NCBI GenBank assembly: GCA_003345595.1
Contig: PRDI01000058.1
Location: forward strand, 15,983 to 79,982
Length of the DNA: 64,000 nt
Direction: 5' to 3'
Source: Candidatus Thorarchaeota archaeon
GTDB lineage: Archaea; Asgardarchaeota; Thorarchaeia; Thorarchaeales; Thorarchaeaceae
Shown here piece by piece: positions 4,139 through 11,206 of the stretch. Both the position numbers and the translations under genes were made by a program. The number at the start of each line of letters is the position of its first letter. Positions within the stretch are counted from its first letter, which is position 1. Below the pieces are notes generated by a model that did not search any database, had not been told where the DNA came from, and saw nothing but the letters and a program-made list of their open reading frames with translations.

Positions 4139-4356
4139 GCTCTCAGATGGAGCCATTCATTATCGGATTTCGGAGTGATTCCTCTGAGCTCAAGAACAGT
4201 CGCACCTGATCTGTCGATATGTTCCTCCAGTATTCCTGTCTTTGTACTCTGCCGACAAATACCTATTACGGGTCGAGGGTGCCTCCTAGCGTGGTCAGGT
4301 CTGATGTTGCCCACACACAAAAAGCATTCATATTGTCACGAATGCCACTTGCTTGC

Positions 4357-5724
4357 ATGGGTGGCGAGCTCAAGTTGCAGGATCAACCCGTCTGTCCGAA
4401 GTGTGGTTCCCGCCTAGGCAAGGGCTCCACACATTGTTTCCATTGTGGCTACAAGCTGAGCGAGACTCTTGGCCCAGACGGAATCATCGTGGGCGCACAA
4501 GAAGAGACAGTCCCTCCAGTAGAAGGCACCAAAGGTCCGAATCTCTCCAATCTTGAGGAACGGATGCTGGGCATGCTGGGGGGTGAAGAGGAGCCCCAAG
4601 CCAAAGAGACTGGTCGACGAGAAGATGGAGAACTTGTGACTCTCCCAGAACTCGATGAATCGGAACTCGAGGAGCTCGAGGTCGACAGCAAAGAGGTTCG
4701 GGTTGGCCCCGTAGAGGCCGCGAAGCCCCAAACACCCGTTTCGGATGAAGCCTTCCTTCCCCCACTGGATGCGGAAGCAGAAACTAGGGCGACAGAGTCC
4801 TCGGCAACCCCCCCTCCAGAAGAAGCACGCGCTTCGGCACGAAGTGAATCCTTGCGTGTTGACGAGAAACCAGAGCCCGCTCTCACGTGGGAATACTCTG
4901 ATCGAATCCCAGAAATGGAACCCGAGGATGTGAAGGAGGGTAACCCCTTCCAAGAGATTGAGCCTCCTAGGGTCGTGTCCGAAGAGGGTGCACCTCGACC
5001 AGCTCCTGGGATGGAGGAAGCGTCCTCTGGCACGGAAGATGAACCCACAAGACGAGCTGTAGCACACCTGTTCCCGCAAGGACGAGGGGTAACGTCCCGA
5101 CAGTTCATCGATGCTGTTGTCGGAAAACCTTCGAGGATTGGGGCTGGTCTCACAGTCGTCGAGATGGAGGCTCCAACTTGCCCTCAGTGTGGTGCTGCAG
5201 TGACTCAGGATGGATTCGACTACCCTCCATATGTCTATGAAGCGATGGGCAAGGCCAGATTGGATAATGGGTCCAGCAAAATAAAGGATAATGAGTACGA
5301 GAAGGCCATTGAGTCATTCGAGATTGCGAAGAAGCTGTTCGAAAGAGCAGGCAATACCAAGATGGTGGAGGAAAGCACAAGAAGAGCGAATGAGGGCTAT
5401 GACGCTATGGCTGAATCGCATATTGTTCAGGGCGAGCGTCATCTGAAGTCTGGCCAATTCGAGTGGGCAGTTGTGCAGTTCAAGAAGGCTCGTGAGTTGT
5501 ACATGTTCAGCACCGATCCGAGGAAGAGAGCAAGATGTGCTGAGAAGGCGCGCGAGAGTTACAGTGCGTGGGGAAGAGAGCTGGAGTCCGAGGGTGACGC
5601 ATTGGTGAAAAGCGGACAGAGCAGAGAGGCGCTCACTAAATACAAAGAGGCCGCTGAGAAGTTCAGAGAGGGCGAGGACTCAAAGCGATTGGCAGGTCTT
5701 GAGAAGAAAATCAGAAAGGCTTAG
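4357..5724 (+). CDS. Zinc-ribbon / acidic disordered linker / TPR-like helical repeat protein
   Basis: CPKCG...CFHCG at the N-terminus, long E/P-rich region, CPQCG, then helical repeats (YEKAIESFEIAKKLF; FEWAVVQFKKARELY; REALTKYKEAAEKF). Start moved to ATG 4357 from ORF-track 4219. Confidence 0.75.
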   Translation: MGGELKLQDQPVCPKCGSRLGKGSTHCFHCGYKLSETLGPDGIIVGAQEETVPPVEGTKGPNLSNLEERMLGMLGGEEEPQAKETGRREDGELVTLPELDESELEELEVDSKEVRVGPVEAAKPQTPVSDEAFLPPLDAEAETRATESSATPPPEEARASARSESLRVDEKPEPALTWEYSDRIPEMEPEDVKEGNPFQEIEPPRVVSEEGAPRPAPGMEEASSGTEDEPTRRAVAHLFPQGRGVTSRQFIDAVVGKPSRIGAGLTVVEMEAPTCPQCGAAVTQDGFDYPPYVYEAMGKARLDNGSSKIKDNEYEKAIESFEIAKKLFERAGNTKMVEESTRRANEGYDAMAESHIVQGERHLKSGQFEWAVVQFKKARELYMFSTDPRKRARCAEKARESYSAWGRELESEGDALVKSGQSREALTKYKEAAEKFREGEDSKRLAGLEKKIRKA

Positions 5725-5848: not shown

Positions 5849-7975
5849 TCATATCCAGTCGCCGGTTTCGAGTTTGCGTGGAATGTATTGGTCCGTCAGG
5901 TACTCGAAGCCGTGACTTGCGAACGCTTGAATCTCTGCCTTCTCTTTGATGCGGAGCATCAGTTCCAGATCCTGAACCCAGGGGCCGTTCTTCTGCACAA
6001 AGGGCTCCTTAAGCATCTCCTTCACTCGCTTGATATCTGCTGGCATCATGGGGATACGAACGCTCTTCGGAATCTTGAATTCATCCAAGTCTCTGCTGAG
6101 CACTCCGAGGAGTTTGAGCTCAGGCGTTGCGATGAATGGTGACTCATAGCTGAGTCGCTTGCTGCCTCGCAGAAAAACGGAATAGATGTAGTGCCCGTAT
6201 GGGTCAGAGTCCATGAGTGCGAAAGCTGGTATCTCCAGTTCCTTGACCATGATCTTCAGGAAGGCTCTCGTGGCCATGTCACCAGAGCCTTTTCCTGTGA
6301 GCACAATGCACGGCTGTCTGTTCCAGTACTTTGCCTCTGCCAGCCGCATCACTGCTGCGTCCTTCTCTGACAGTAGAATGAACTCGGCATCACTCTCGAC
6401 TATCTCGACTTCGTCAAGGAATGGCGTGATAGCCCAACCACCTGTGCCCATCTGAGTGAGATCAATCCTGTCGCCAGCATCCCGTATGACGACACGTCCC
6501 ATCGCCGACCCACGGGCAGCGGCCACAACGTGTACGCTGTCACGGGTCGTCTGCAGCATTGATGAAACGTCCTCGAGTATCTTGTCACTATACTTCTGGT
6601 CACGAAAGAGGTTGACATCCGAATAGTAAATCTCTCTCTTCGTCGCATGAAGGCTCGACTTCAGGAGTTCATATACTATCTCCATCACTCTTGCAGTGCG
6701 AGTGGCATCCACAACAGACGCTAGGGAGTGGTAGGGACGAGAGATAGTCCTCATACCCAGCAGAAGAAGATCCCTTACTTCATCCCACACTATGTTGTCG
6801 GCGGACCTGCTCGGTATCTCAAACGATGGACGCCCGGTGGTCATTGTTTCGTTCAGAACCTCGATTGCAGCCTCGACCAACCTCTCGACGGTTTCATCTG
6901 CAGTCAGGTTCGCCACAGGAACTGTGCCCGGTGACGTGGCCCCATCCTTCGAAACCGGTTCTTTTTCTGCGGTGCGCCACTGCGCTCTCATCTGCTCGGC
7001 GAGGTCAATGATAGGTTGCGGGACAGGCAACCCTGACGACTTGCGAACCGGTCTTACTCGCGTCAATGGGACCTTTATGGGCTTGGGCTTTCTGTGTACA
7101 GTAACGACAGTTTCCTCCACCTTCGGCTTCTTCTTCGCCTTCTTGCTTGTCTTCTTCTCGCCGGCTACCTCTGGTGCCTTCGGATCGGGAGTAGAAATCG
7201 CTGTTACGGGTTCGCCAGAAACTTGAGCGAGCTGCCTTGACGTCATGGCCTCCTTCGCAGCCGCCACGAGTGACTTTGCATGGCCCACGCTTAAGCCGTC
7301 GACCGTACGTGCCAGACTCTCTGGACGTGTCCTCGACAATCTAGCTACGGAGTCATACCCAGCTGAAACGAGTCTTTGTGCCAGCTTGGAGCCCACACCG
7401 TCAAGATCAGTGAGTTCAGGCTCAGGACCAGAAACCTCTGCACTCGGCTCGGCTTCTGCAGACGAGGTCTGGGTTTCCTCCAAGTCAATTGACGAAGTTC
7501 TTAGATATTCGGCTGCAGCCTTGATTAGCTTCTTCGCAGAGTCGACTGTCATTCCTTCAACTCGCCGCGACACGGCGTCCGCCTTTGCGTTTGATAGCTG
7601 CTCGACAGAGTCGTACCCTGCTTCGGTCAGTTTCTCTTCTAGCTTTTTGCCCACTCCAGCCAAGAGTCCGAGTGAGGTTGTTGTAGACGGCTCTTCTTCC
7701 TGAACGGTTTCTGGGATTTTGGATGTCCCCCTGCTCTCAGGTTTCTTCTCTTTCTTTGGACTAGCTTTCTTGCTGGCACGTTTGGGCTGTGACGTTCTCT
7801 TCTCGGGCTTAGCCTTCTTCTCCTTTCGTTTCTTGTCAGGCGCCTTGCTCTCCTTCTTCCGAGAGAGTCTGTCCCTGAGAGACTTCATCTTTGAGTCTTT
7901 CACCTTCTTTCGATCGACCAGATTCCCTAAGGTGGTCTGGACACCCTCCTTGTTGTCAGTCCGTTTGGCTGCCAC
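5849..7975 (-). CDS. top6A: DNA topoisomerase VI subunit A (Spo11 family) with ~350-aa N-terminal extension containing two HhH modules
   Basis: TKREIYY catalytic-Tyr motif, Toprim EKDA and DSDPYG, and KAEIQA. The GTG start overlaps the top6B stop (TAGTG). Confidence 0.95.
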   Translation of the reverse strand: MAAKRTDNKEGVQTTLGNLVDRKKVKDSKMKSLRDRLSRKKESKAPDKKRKEKKAKPEKRTSQPKRASKKASPKKEKKPESRGTSKIPETVQEEEPSTTTSLGLLAGVGKKLEEKLTEAGYDSVEQLSNAKADAVSRRVEGMTVDSAKKLIKAAAEYLRTSSIDLEETQTSSAEAEPSAEVSGPEPELTDLDGVGSKLAQRLVSAGYDSVARLSRTRPESLARTVDGLSVGHAKSLVAAAKEAMTSRQLAQVSGEPVTAISTPDPKAPEVAGEKKTSKKAKKKPKVEETVVTVHRKPKPIKVPLTRVRPVRKSSGLPVPQPIIDLAEQMRAQWRTAEKEPVSKDGATSPGTVPVANLTADETVERLVEAAIEVLNETMTTGRPSFEIPSRSADNIVWDEVRDLLLLGMRTISRPYHSLASVVDATRTARVMEIVYELLKSSLHATKREIYYSDVNLFRDQKYSDKILEDVSSMLQTTRDSVHVVAAARGSAMGRVVIRDAGDRIDLTQMGTGGWAITPFLDEVEIVESDAEFILLSEKDAAVMRLAEAKYWNRQPCIVLTGKGSGDMATRAFLKIMVKELEIPAFALMDSDPYGHYIYSVFLRGSKRLSYESPFIATPELKLLGVLSRDLDEFKIPKSVRIPMMPADIKRVKEMLKEPFVQKNGPWVQDLELMLRIKEKAEIQAFASHGFEYLTDQYIPRKLETGDWI

Positions 7976-10257
7976 TAGTCATCCCCACCTGAAGAGGTGC
8001 CAACGTCATCCTCCTCGCTATCTCCAAGCGGAATATCCGCAAGCAGATCCGCACTGAGCACGTCGCCTTCAATCTCCTCTTCGTCCGCCTCCATCTCAAA
8101 ACCGGATATGGCATCTCGCAGTCTGGATGCGATTGTTTCAGCATCGAACAGCTTCTTGCGCTTGCTATCATTGGCTATCGCAACGAGGCTGTGAGCGAAC
8201 TGATCAGCGTACATGGCAAGAATGCCTGCCCTCTTGGCCTTCTTCTTTGCAGTTTCACGACGGGTTATGAACAACCTGAACTTCCGTCCTGCATCCTCAA
8301 GTGCGAGCTTAATCTCTCTTATGAGAACCTCATCTTCTGCCAGAGCCTGCTTGCTTTGGCCCTTGAACATGACATGAACGTATGCCCCGCACACATGTAT
8401 GAAGAGCATAACTGGTCCTCTTGGCACGCCGTTGTCGAAGGAATCCAGCTTGTAATTCCTCCAGTTCACAGAGGTTGTTGCCTTCCAAGTCGCACAGTCA
8501 CTGTTGTCTCGGAGCTTCGGCACTCGATTGACAAATCTCCACAATACCGCGTTCGCTGAACCTGCAGGTTTGATATCGCCGCCATATGCAATGCAGACCT
8601 CGACCGCAAAGGATAGTCCCTTTCCTGACGTGGGCTTCCTGGTTATTGCTGTGACGAACTCGGGGTTGTAGGCCTGCTTTATCGTCTTCTCGAAGATTTC
8701 CTCTCCGACTGGTACAACTGTGTCCGTGGGTGGAGCAATGTATTCTTCGCTCGAGAACGCCTTGTAGAGATACTCCACCTCAGTCTTCGACAACGAGTCT
8801 GTCGGAGTCCTTGGACCTATCGTGGGGAGCTTCCGAATCCTCAGTTCTTTGTTGGTGTTGTCTATAATCGTACTCGCCTTGTTTCCGCTTAGTCTGCAAA
8901 AGCCCCTTGTGAGAAAACCATGAAGGTCTCGTTCTGATGTTTCTCGAAGCAGGTCCTGAAACTCACCTATTCTTATGCTGGCTGGGTGCGCTTGGGCGTA
9001 CTTCGGTTCTTCTGGGAAAGTGTTTACTCGTCGAGGATAGATATGCACTTCCCCATAGGGGTCTATGAACACAAGGGTGATGTGAGGGTCCAGCAGGGAG
9101 GTCATCTGAGCGTAGACATCCGCATATCCTCGTTTGTACTGAATGTTGAGGTAGTAGAGTCTGATGTAAGTGCCGTGGTCGAAGGGTAGATCCATTTCGA
9201 GTGGGCCGTTGACATACTCCTTCGTGTTTGCGGTTGTCGTGTAGTACTCCGCCACGGTCGCCTTTTCTGATGTAAACTTCTTTGTGACTGCGAATATTGG
9301 CTTTCCCGTCGTGTTCTGAGCGTCACTGAAAGCTGACGGAGCTCCAAATCCTTGGCTTCCTCTGGTCTGTTTCAGTTTCTCTGACTTGCTGGATGCCAAG
9401 TAGATGCCAAACTTCTCGAGGTCTGCCGGGACCATTCCGACACCGGTGTCAAAGCAGATGAACTCATAGACTTTGAAGCCTTCCTCACTGACCACTGGGA
9501 CCAAGTCTGGCATGAGGAGCTCGGTCACCTGTATGACAACTAGGGGTTCGTGCTTCGTGATGAATCCTCGGAATGGAACAAGGAACTTCCTGAATCTCGC
9601 GAGGTGTGTTTCCAGGTTATCTTTGGGTCGCGGCGGGATATCCACCTGTTTTCCATCACGTATGTCCTTCTCAATCTTCTTGCTGAGGGCAATCGTGTCT
9701 TCCAGCTGGTCCTTGAACTTCTCCCTGACTTCCTCGACAAGCTTCGGATCAAGCTGGTCGCTTAGGCGAGGCTTCCTGTCTGTCTTCCACCACCAGCTCT
9801 CCAGTGCGTCAATTGCATTGTCGATAAACTCAATGGAATACTGCGTATGCTTGTTTAGACCAGTTTCGAAACCAACAAGCTGCGTCCTCTTTCGCATGAA
9901 CTTAGCAATTGTGCCTTGCTTGATGTCTCCAGACTCCTCAAGAGGGGCTTCGACTGCGGGCTCACTTCCCTTTGGAGTGTCCTTCTTCTTGTCCCTTCTC
10001 TTGATCCTCTTTTCAGAAACGGATTCTTTCTTGGCTTTCTTTTCGACAGTCTTCTTCGGAACGGCCTGTTTCCTACTCTTGCTTTCGGCGCTCTTCTTTG
10101 GGGCAGACTTCTTGCTCTTGGCGCTCTTCTCTACAGTGCTCTTCTTACTGTCCTTCTTCTCCGGACTCAATGGGCTCACCTCAAATAGGCCGTGCTGTTC
10201 ATTCAACATGCTTCGCAACAGGCAGGGACAACTAGCTCGTTGGCTCGTTTCTGTCAT
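7975..10257 (-). CDS. top6B: DNA topoisomerase VI subunit B
   Basis: GHKL motifs EFIDNAIDA, DTGVGM and RGSQGFGA; H2TH region; transducer RFVNRVP. Lys-rich N-terminus and acidic tail. Exact start uncertain. Confidence 0.95.
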   Translation of the reverse strand: MTETSQRASCPCLLRSMLNEQHGLFEVSPLSPEKKDSKKSTVEKSAKSKKSAPKKSAESKSRKQAVPKKTVEKKAKKESVSEKRIKRRDKKKDTPKGSEPAVEAPLEESGDIKQGTIAKFMRKRTQLVGFETGLNKHTQYSIEFIDNAIDALESWWWKTDRKPRLSDQLDPKLVEEVREKFKDQLEDTIALSKKIEKDIRDGKQVDIPPRPKDNLETHLARFRKFLVPFRGFITKHEPLVVIQVTELLMPDLVPVVSEEGFKVYEFICFDTGVGMVPADLEKFGIYLASSKSEKLKQTRGSQGFGAPSAFSDAQNTTGKPIFAVTKKFTSEKATVAEYYTTTANTKEYVNGPLEMDLPFDHGTYIRLYYLNIQYKRGYADVYAQMTSLLDPHITLVFIDPYGEVHIYPRRVNTFPEEPKYAQAHPASIRIGEFQDLLRETSERDLHGFLTRGFCRLSGNKASTIIDNTNKELRIRKLPTIGPRTPTDSLSKTEVEYLYKAFSSEEYIAPPTDTVVPVGEEIFEKTIKQAYNPEFVTAITRKPTSGKGLSFAVEVCIAYGGDIKPAGSANAVLWRFVNRVPKLRDNSDCATWKATTSVNWRNYKLDSFDNGVPRGPVMLFIHVCGAYVHVMFKGQSKQALAEDEVLIREIKLALEDAGRKFRLFITRRETAKKKAKRAGILAMYADQFAHSLVAIANDSKRKKLFDAETIASRLRDAISGFEMEADEEEIEGDVLSADLLADIPLGDSEEDDVGTSSGGDD

Positions 10258-10444
10258 CTAGTATCCATTTATTGTTTTCCCGTTGTGCCTCCCCACAGCC
10301 TTTCATAGGGCGCGTTTGGGTCGGAACGGGCTGTTTCGAACGACTTCGATGGCCCATACGGGACTCCAAAATCGCATACTTCGGAGTTCGAGTGACCATC
10401 GGCAGGCTTTTACTGTTGCCATAGGGAGCGTCCACGAGTGTCGG

Positions 10445-11206
10445 ATGTTGCCCAGCCCTCGGATTCAAGTTATCGCAGTCGAAGGCATCCCAGTGATAGA
10501 TGGTCCGTCGGACCTCCCTGAAATCATCTTGAGAGCACTAGGGAGGTCTGGCGAGAAGCTTGTTGACGGTGACGTGATAGTCGTAGCCCAGAAGATAGTT
10601 TCCAAGTCGGAAGGAAGGGTTGTCCGTCAGAGCGATGTCCAAGTGTCTGAGCATGCCCAAGGCATTGCGAAACGCAATGGGTTTGATCCATGGCAAGTTC
10701 AGCTGGCTCTTGATGAGAGCCGAGAGGTGCTTAGGAGTGAGCGTGTCTTTATCACTGAAACACGAAACGGCATAGTGTGCAACTTCAGTGGCGTTGACAG
10801 ATCGAATGCACCAAGAGGTTCGTACATTCTCCTTCCCGAAAACCCTGATGCAAGTGCAGAACACATCATGCGTGTAGTGATCGAGCGAACAGGTCTAAGC
10901 AGGCTTGCAGTCATAGTGTCGGATACTCAGGGTCGGCCATGGCGGGTGGGTTCCGTGAACTTGGCCATAGGTTGTGCGGGCATAAACGCGTTCAAGTACA
11001 ACAGGGGCAAACAGGACCTCTATGGGAGAGTCCTTGAGCATTCGACTGTCTGCCAAATCGATGAACTCGCCGCAGCAGCAGAGCATGCAATGGGGCAGGC
11101 TGGAGAGGGTGTACCAGTTGTAATAGTAAGGGGGTACCCATACTCTGACGGCCCTGAGCATGGTAGCAACGTGCCGAGACCAAAATCCGAAGATCTGTTC
11201 AGGTAG
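10445..11206 (+). CDS. cofE: Coenzyme F420-0:L-glutamate ligase
   Basis: DGDVIVVAQKIVSKSEGR, SGVDRSN, LLPENPDAS, SDTQGRPWR, DELAAAA, PVVIVRG. Start moved to ATG 10445. Confidence 0.93.
   Translation: MLPSPRIQVIAVEGIPVIDGPSDLPEIILRALGRSGEKLVDGDVIVVAQKIVSKSEGRVVRQSDVQVSEHAQGIAKRNGFDPWQVQLALDESREVLRSERVFITETRNGIVCNFSGVDRSNAPRGSYILLPENPDASAEHIMRVVIERTGLSRLAVIVSDTQGRPWRVGSVNLAIGCAGINAFKYNRGKQDLYGRVLEHSTVCQIDELAAAAEHAMGQAGEGVPVVIVRGYPYSDGPEHGSNVPRPKSEDLFR

Follow-up and report, generated by a model that had tools for sequence, protein, structure and literature searches.

Helix-hairpin-helix modules at the N-terminus of a Thorarchaeota topoisomerase VI A subunit as a candidate DNA tether

What is the role of some 300 residues placed in front of the catalytic core of a topoisomerase VI (Topo VI) A subunit, and from where did they come? 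The question is raised by a gene in a 64,000-nucleotide stretch of DNA, here called the window, from Candidatus Thorarchaeota archaeon (assembly GCA_003345595.1, contig PRDI01000058.1, positions 15,983 to 79,982 of the forward strand). The gene overlaps the end of a top6B gene and encodes a Top6A protein of the Spo11 family, in which two helix-hairpin-helix (HhH) modules of the tandem kind, (HhH)2, precede the core together with Lys-rich tracts. Modules of this kind are found in topoisomerase V (Topo V) of Methanopyrus kandleri and at the N-terminus of the recombinase RadA. The gene was identified by its open reading frame (ORF), by Pfam and NCBIfam profiles and by a 100% cluster match (P0001), and its parts are listed below with the confidence of structure prediction (predicted local distance difference test, pLDDT) and with invariance as found among 20 homologues.

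5849..7975, minus strand: top6A-HhH gene, 708 amino acids (aa) plus stop, GTG start
7898..7975, minus strand: conserved N-terminal peptide, aa 1-26, of the pattern M..KK..VQxTLxxxV; Q13, T15 and L16 nearly invariant
7685..7897, minus strand: Lys-rich low-complexity tail, aa 27-97, net charge +15, of varying length among genera, predicted disordered (pLDDT ~30)
7496..7684, minus strand: (HhH)2 module 1, aa 98-160, LAGVGKKLEEKL... / VEGMTVDSAKKLI, found by Pfam HHH_5 and NCBIfam RadA-N (pLDDT ~85)
7421..7495, minus strand: acidic linker, aa 161-185, net charge -7, poorly conserved (pLDDT <50)
7238..7420, minus strand: (HhH)2 module 2, aa 186-246, LDGVGSKLAQRL... / VDGLSVGHAKSLV, found by Pfam, by alignment and by PDB sequence match to Topo V
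7061..7237, minus strand: Pro/Lys-rich linker, aa 247-305, net charge +8, predicted disordered
6956..7060, minus strand: KPIRKxSGLPVP motif and helix 320-337, aa 306-340; K312, S314, L316 and V318 invariant
5852..6901, minus strand: Top6A core, aa 359-708, with 5Y-CAP 425-483, Toprim 532-702 and C-terminal ...KLETGDWI

The extension and its modules

The first-pass annotation of this locus regarded the extension as real because its GTG start appeared to be coupled to the top6B stop, and this was borne out. The GTG (7975-7973) shares its G with the TAG stop (7977-7975) of the upstream 760-aa top6B ORF, giving TAGTG (the plus strand reads ...cactag... at 7973-7978), while the open frame of 709 codons opens one codon before the GTG and a Shine-Dalgarno-like GGTGGGGAT lies 6-14 nucleotides upstream of it. 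The VQxTL peptide, for which as for the rest of the extension conservation was taken from the 20-sequence alignment, lies 5' of the first internal methionine (M30), which speaks for translation from the GTG. Of 255 hits among 5.8 billion proteins searched, the best 120, nearly all of them from Thorarchaeota metagenome-assembled genomes (MAGs), are all 640-750 aa long with HHH_5 and Top6A domains. Among at least 120 homologous clusters the Lys-rich tracts differ in length, yet the frame is never broken, and the homologues keep the extension upstream of the core instead of starting at the core. On these comparisons the ~300-residue extension is confirmed as genuine coding sequence under selection. 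A length of ~350 aa before the core had been given at first; the arrangement stands as it was described, including the K-rich segment and the P/K-rich linker that flank the repeats, as their composition confirms, but the lineage-specific addition amounts to ~300 aa, because residues ~306-358 are either common to other Asgard-type Top6A or conserved in the family.

The repeats had also been taken for HhH modules, and confident (HhH)2 models were indeed obtained. Pfam HHH_5 matches the extension in two stretches (4.6e-15, 56.3 bits against a cut-off of 27), and NCBIfam RadA-N-like profiles match residues 100-160. In a PDB sequence search with the extension, the best matches were the (HhH)2 repeats of Topo V (4GFJ/5HM5/8DF7, E 1e-9), followed by the RadA N-terminal domain 1PZN; the Topo V matches are confined to HhH repeats at chain residues 360-685, and module 2, the best conserved part of the extension at 55-59% identity, finds its best PDB match in repeats 574-685. 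An AlphaFold2 (AF2) model of residues 96-249 gave two modules of 4-5 helices each at pLDDT ~85, joined by a low-confidence linker. Foldseek with this model returned NusA AR domains (TM 0.72), Topo V and many RadA/Rad51 N-domains, and the N-terminal domain (NTD) of M. maripaludis RadA (3ETL) superposes on a module at 0.8 Å over 58 aa with 28% identity. The modules fit the arrangement that defines an (HhH)2 domain, two HhH motifs in a ~60-residue five-helix bundle. The first hairpin keeps the canonical h-x-G-V-G-x-K phosphate-binding pattern, in which G109, K111, G193, G195 and K197 are invariant, and in module 1 the invariant positions also include L102, Y121 and G141. Across genera the modules are 44-59% identical, as against 16-30% for the linkers.

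The modules share the ~60-residue fold of the RadA/Rad51 NTD and of NusA AR1/AR2 but sit on a topoisomerase rather than on a recombinase or a transcription factor. Their identity to one another is 46% over 54 aa (E 2e-16) and that to the N-domain of the genome's own RadA is 38%, so that recent copying from radA, which was considered as their origin, is not supported. Other (HhH)2 modules were observed in the same genome at G000:C58:14678-14848, ~1.1 kb before the window start, and at C23:22748-22927 and C117:39741-39929; it is the first of these that resembles the RadA N-terminal domain and gives the value of 38%, and radA would therefore lie ~8 kb from the Topo VI operon.

Between the Pro/Lys-rich linker and the core, helix 320-337 is conserved and was predicted at pLDDT ~65 in a full-length AF2 model, which was built on the 20-sequence alignment and used for per-residue disorder and helix calls only. 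Brinkmeier et al. 2022 (PMC9665070) reported that TopoVIA of Asgard archaea and eukaryotes has an extra N-terminal helix (alpha1) ahead of the B-interacting helix, for which helix 320-337 may be a candidate.

The core, its ancestry and the spread of the arm

Pfam finds TP6A_N (PF04406) at 425-483 (3e-19) and Toprim (PF21180) at 532-702 (1.9e-51), with a small all-beta domain (489-529) in between, and the NCBIfam Top6A profiles start at residue ~359. The catalytic tyrosine, Y451 (nucleotides 6623-6625), is invariant in the 20 homologues; when KREIYYSD of the window is aligned with LRELYY of M. mazei, Y451 falls on the second tyrosine, Y106, which was named catalytic in that enzyme (PMC11302465). 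The metal-binding residues of the Toprim domain, E537 (LLSEKDA) and D589/D591 (DSDPYG), are invariant as well. The features by which a Topo VI A subunit is recognised, namely a 5Y-CAP domain with catalytic Tyr, a Toprim domain with Glu and DxD and a partner B with GHKL, H2TH and transducer domains, the last of which sets Topo VI apart from Spo11/TopoVIBL, were all found. With its motifs intact, the enzyme is a complete and probably active A2B2 type IIB topoisomerase.

With the canonical Top6A of S. shibatae (2ZBK), M. jannaschii (1D3Y) and M. mazei (2Q2E) the window protein shares the two-domain core (201, 131 and 123 bits, respectively) and a top6B-top6A operon with overlapping stop and start. 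Those proteins, unlike it, are 369-389 aa long, in agreement with the ~370-390 aa that had been given as typical of archaeal Top6A, and have neither HhH nor a basic arm. The core prefers S. shibatae among these structures and prefers eukaryotic TOP6A even more; its nearest representatives outside Thorarchaeota include eukaryotic TOP6A at 41-47% identity, for example that of the diatom Thalassiosira. In fact, it is orthologous to the core of the Asgard/eukaryote TopoVIA (in plants SPO11-3/TOP6A; Brinkmeier et al. 2022, PMC9665070), with which it has in common the C-terminal ...KLxxGDWI, the catalytic Tyr, the Toprim acidic residues and a GHKL/H2TH/transducer Top6B partner. The difference lies in the ~300 N-terminal residues with Lys-rich tracts and 2-7 (HhH)2 domains, which were seen in none of the other sampled Asgard or eukaryotic TOP6A.

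The ancestry was traced with IQ-TREE in a careful run on 68 Top6A sequences (support as ultrafast bootstrap/SH-aLRT), with which quick trees agree. The HhH-Top6A proteins form one clade (100/100), whose sister is the copy of the neighbouring family (100/99), a 420-aa protein with a short basic helical N-tail, no HhH and 73.5% core identity. Both nest inside an Asgard-plus-eukaryote clade of 35 rows (100/99), in which eukaryotic TOP6A falls together with another Asgard branch (families f5/f16/f22/f27; 96/87). By this placement the HhH-bearing gene is the vertically inherited Asgard-type Top6A, to which the arm was added after the two families split. A relevance to Spo11 evolution had been suggested at first, but a late gain limited to one family, with an HhH-free sister orthologue and with eukaryotic TOP6A on another branch, bears on the origin of Spo11 only weakly; the information on this point is marginal, and the fusion is of interest chiefly to topoisomerase specialists.

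On the branch nearest eukaryotic TOP6A a different N-terminal add-on appears to be present. The Top6A of families f5, f16 and f22 (P0123, P0130; loci L005, L007, L011) are ~460-480 aa long and begin with a ~110-aa domain of ubiquitin-like appearance, for which the Pfam ubiquitin match (E 0.0023) is under the cut-off.

The spread of the arm was surveyed with residues 1-357 in 301 genomes of the phylum, 76 from the window's family (f1) and 225 from other Asgard archaea. Full-length matches within open frames of 640-954 aa were found in essentially every evaluable genome of the 76 and in none of the 225 others, the sister family of the same order included, where weak generic HhH matches were all that appeared; a check of Asgard Top6A N-termini, which had been called for, thus finds the extension fixed in one family. 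Within that family the number of modules varies with the genus, as a look at four further genera shows.

Window, G005 and G075: 2 HHH_5 units, 708-749 aa, Lys-rich tail present
G179: 3 HHH_5 units, 788 aa
G128: 4 HHH_5 units, 863 aa
G027 (genus g4): 7 HHH_5 units (HHH_5 E 3e-97), 954 aa, Lys-rich tail gone

The seven-module protein has canonical G-[IV]-G in both hairpins, and its arm carries by rough count a net charge of ~+3, as against +26 to +54 in the others. Loss of the Lys-rich tail in the protein with most modules is as expected if total DNA-binding capacity is the selected trait.

Among the best 150 of the 50%-identity representatives (1.84 billion proteins), only two clusters, of 746 and 950 aa, have the HhH-Top6A design, and the other long Top6A there, considered as possible cases outside Thorarchaeota, hold inteins or extensions without a recognised domain. 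Several Top6A of 636-901 aa (P0136, P0142, P0169, P0263) owe their length to LAGLIDADG inteins in or before the Toprim domain.

The arm as a putative DNA tether, and the alternatives

Characterised Topo VI enzymes bind DNA weakly and act distributively. It is proposed that the HhH arm probably acts as a flexible, non-specific DNA tether on an Asgard/eukaryote-type Topo VI A subunit. This positively charged arm, gained at the Top6A N-terminus in one Thorarchaeota family, is made up of the conserved peptide at its start, disordered tracts rich in Lys and (HhH)2 domains in tandem that resemble those of RadA-N and Topo V. According to the model, the A2B2 heterotetramer would display two arms, hence four (HhH)2 domains in the window's enzyme, and in the window's genus two further Lys-rich tails, those on Top6B. 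The arms would bind the backbone of duplex DNA without sequence preference, and such tethering may give the enzyme a higher local affinity for DNA, more salt tolerance and greater processivity, and/or favour the capture of a second duplex.

The proposal draws on the precedent of Topo V and of HhH-polymerase chimeras, on the apparent trade-off between modules and Lys-rich tracts, and on the recurrence of Rad51-N-like arrays on Asgard-type Topo VI. In Topo V 12 tandem (HhH)2 domains are in contact with DNA (PMC9489208), and its HhH domains confer salt tolerance and processivity on polymerases (PMC8313265). The analogy with Topo V, already drawn in the first-pass annotation, is apt. The modules match Topo V repeats by sequence and by fold; both are topoisomerases joined to tandem (HhH)2 domains, and the length of the array is evolvable (2-7 in the Thorarchaeota family). 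However, the type IC catalytic domain of Topo V is unrelated to type IIB, its array is C-terminal rather than N-terminal, and in Top6A Lys-rich disordered tracts part the modules and there is no sign of apurinic/apyrimidinic (AP) lyase sites. As its catalytic domain is not of type IC, the window protein is, by sequence, an analogue of Topo V and not a member of its class.

Recurrence was observed in a Heimdall-group genome (G003:C26, L036 1294-13857) from a family with gyrase, where a Top6B of 4187 aa, which has its transducer at 348-512 and RAD51D_N-like matches in a giant region C-terminal to it, is directly followed by a 468-aa Top6A. This suggests that HhH arrays were joined to Asgard-type Topo VI more than once. 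The giant Top6B resembles the window's family in placing Rad51-N-like HhH on an Asgard-type Topo VI, but there the array sits on subunit B, at the C-terminus. In Topo VI holoenzyme structures a single junction brings together the N-terminus of A and the C-terminus of B; if that holds, arrays of either kind would project from one and the same point of the enzyme.

Several points weigh against a DNA tether. The sister family and most Asgard archaea do without HhH arms. The second hairpin of each window module is degenerate (VEGMTV / VDGLSV, one Gly only), as in the RadA NTD. RadA/Rad51 N-domains and NusA AR domains mediate protein contacts too, and the fold alone is thus no proof of DNA binding. 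Finally, the full-length AF2 model gives no geometry for the reach of the arm; its core is poor (mean pLDDT 46.6), presumably for want of divergence among the homologues, and the model was dropped as a basis for fold search or arm geometry.

Rather than binding DNA anywhere, the arm could target a particular DNA geometry or chromatin, its (HhH)2 tandems, of the kind seen in RuvA, and its basic tails recognising crossings, junctions, and bent or histone-bound DNA and sending the HhH paralog to catenanes or to replication and termination intermediates while a short euryarchaeal-like paralog of the same genomes does another task. A division of labour of this kind is invited by an order without gyrase whose genomes each have 2-3 complete Topo VI operons. 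Judging from the model, two duplexes could be bridged by the paired modules with their flexible linker, and Topo VI has been characterised as an enzyme that preferentially decatenates DNA at crossings (McKie et al. 2022, as reported in PMC9348778). Against this, no geometry specificity is visible in the sequence, and a range of 2 to 7 modules with unconstrained linkers fits avidity better than a fixed geometry, so that targeting of this kind appears unlikely, if the best of the alternatives.

A role in protein docking is rather improbable. In that case the (HhH)2 modules and the VQxTL peptide would bring Topo VI to a partner, for example the replisome, RadA, SMC or histones, with the Lys tracts as spacers. 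Contacts made by Rad51-N and NusA AR2 are precedents, the fold matches include the NusA AR domains, known protein binders, the short N-terminal peptide is conserved although it stands in a disordered tail, and radA, with an N-domain related to the modules as given above, would be ~8 kb away on the same contig. On the other hand, the best sequence matches are the DNA-contacting Topo V repeats, the phosphate-binding pattern of the first hairpin is invariant while the seven-module variant is canonical in both hairpins, and no conserved partner gene was identified beyond a neighbour with zinc-ribbon and TPR-like parts.

The closeness to Topo V, whose repeats are the closest PDB sequence relatives of the modules, also raises the idea of an additional catalytic function in the modules, for example AP-lyase repair, which three (HhH)2 domains of Topo V provide in an enzyme that combines topoisomerase and AP-lyase (PMC9489208). 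This is very improbable, for the invariant positions are all generic to HhH, none of the Lys residues beyond the hairpin is conserved in a way that would mark a lyase site, and the nearest folds are the non-catalytic domains of RadA and NusA. There is hardly any chance that the extension stands outside the working enzyme, through cleavage of the arm or through an internal start such as M329 that would give a canonical ~380-aa Top6A, since, although Met is common in the helix motif LAxEMKxxW, M329 has no Shine-Dalgarno-like motif upstream whereas the coupled GTG has one, frame and modules are conserved in the at least 120 clusters, and the modules are expanded in some genera.

Further Topo VI operons and the gene neighbourhood

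The HhH-bearing copy is not the only Topo VI of its genome. A second canonical operon, on contig C56 of the same genome (G000, locus L003, 2315-4874), encodes a 504-aa Top6B and a 350-aa Top6A in overlapping genes, which are 27% and 29% identical, respectively, to their counterparts in the window. Bit scores place the short Top6A nearest to euryarchaeal enzymes (211 for M. mazei, 200 for M. jannaschii and 149 for S. shibatae), and such short copies form a separate clade of the tree, where second copies of several other Asgard families join them (98/96 with the copy of the sister family). MAG contamination was considered for the C56 operon and rejected, as the short copy recurs throughout the genus (4/4 genomes) and almost throughout the family, and its tree mirrors that of the HhH copy. 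Across the family two or three Top6A per genome were found, matched in number by Top6B and each with its own top6B upstream; in the window's genus the number of Topo VI copies is two in 4/4 genomes. Core identity between genera is 82-91% for the HhH-bearing copy, compared with 66-70% and 72-78% for the other two Thorarchaeota paralogs, and by this measure of sequence identity the HhH-bearing copy is the slowest-evolving and most constrained of the three. GyrA was not found in 14/14 genomes of the order and is present in two other Asgard families, in line with the gyrase absence of Villain et al. 2022 (PMC9348778).

The third Top6A, seen in many genera of the family but not in the window's, is very divergent, 387-393 aa long with a tree branch length of ~3.2 (L027, L028, L029; G005, G075, G027), and each has its own Top6B-like ORF upstream; these are candidates for a Topo VI paralog or for a Topo VIII/Mini-A-like element. 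In family f16 a pair of Asgard-type Top6A genes, for proteins of 473 and 389 aa, lies on a single contig, ~11 kb apart (G041:C6 515382 and 526793; also G058:C30 and G050:C125).

In a literature search of incomplete coverage, with general papers represented by title and abstract, no published Top6A-(HhH)2 fusion and no report of multiple Thorarchaeota Topo VI operons was found, and HhH is not mentioned in Brinkmeier 2022 or Allen 2024. The fusion proteins are already in public databases under generic names, such as 'helix-hairpin-helix domain-containing protein' at NCBI and 'SPO11' at JGI. What is added here to the first-pass annotation is the second or third Topo VI operon, the identification of the HhH copy as the slowest-evolving, Asgard/eukaryote-type orthologue, the gyrase-less order and the range of modules from 2 to 7.

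It is conceivable, if doubtful, that Asgard/eukaryote-type Topo VI was repeatedly rebuilt into a DNA- or chromatin-tethered machine through Rad51-N-like (HhH)2 arrays, and that in gyrase-less Thorarchaeota the tethered copy is the main processive relaxase/decatenase while the plain paralogs are specialised. If true, the type IIB enzymes would divide their labour in a way that is not known from any archaeon. A natural series with 0, 2, 3, 4 or 7 (HhH)2 domains offers a way to see how a type IIB enzyme is tuned by arms that bind DNA, alongside Topo V and the engineered HhH-polymerase chimeras; plant Topo VI depends on the separate partners BIN4 and RHL1 (PMC9665070). Furthermore, a recent review gives archaeal genomes one type IIB gene (PMC8185306), a statement to be qualified by the two or three Topo VI operons of gyrase-less Thorarchaeota, one Asgard/eukaryote-like and one euryarchaeal-like, which also bear on how Asgard archaea manage DNA topology.

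The partner top6B and the genes next to the operon are as follows.

7975..10257, minus strand: partner top6B, 760 aa, start tentative; NF003218 9.3e-100 (above cut-off), transducer 2.7e-43
9463-9795, minus strand: ~110-aa helix-rich insertion of Top6B between the N-box and the G1 box of the GHKL domain, common to the family and the sister family
about 9943-10161, minus strand: Lys-rich N-tail of Top6B (~aa 33-105), in the window's genus and the sister family
7978-8115, minus strand: acidic C-tail of Top6B
10283-11206, plus strand: CofE homologue (F420-0:gamma-glutamyl ligase; PF01996, 5e-67), divergent from top6B
4219..5724, plus strand: convergent zinc-ribbon/TPR gene, 501 aa, syntenic with top6B-top6A in other genera and the sister family

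In Top6B a conserved GDIKQGTIAKFMRKRTQ strap, the N-box EFIDNAIDA (~143-152), the G1 box DTGVGM (270), the G2 box RGSQGFGA and the transducer (509-676) are all kept, and the H2TH region aligns. The protein encoded at 4219..5724 has a zinc ribbon at its N-terminus and TPR-like repeats at its C-terminus, with an acidic low-complexity stretch between them.

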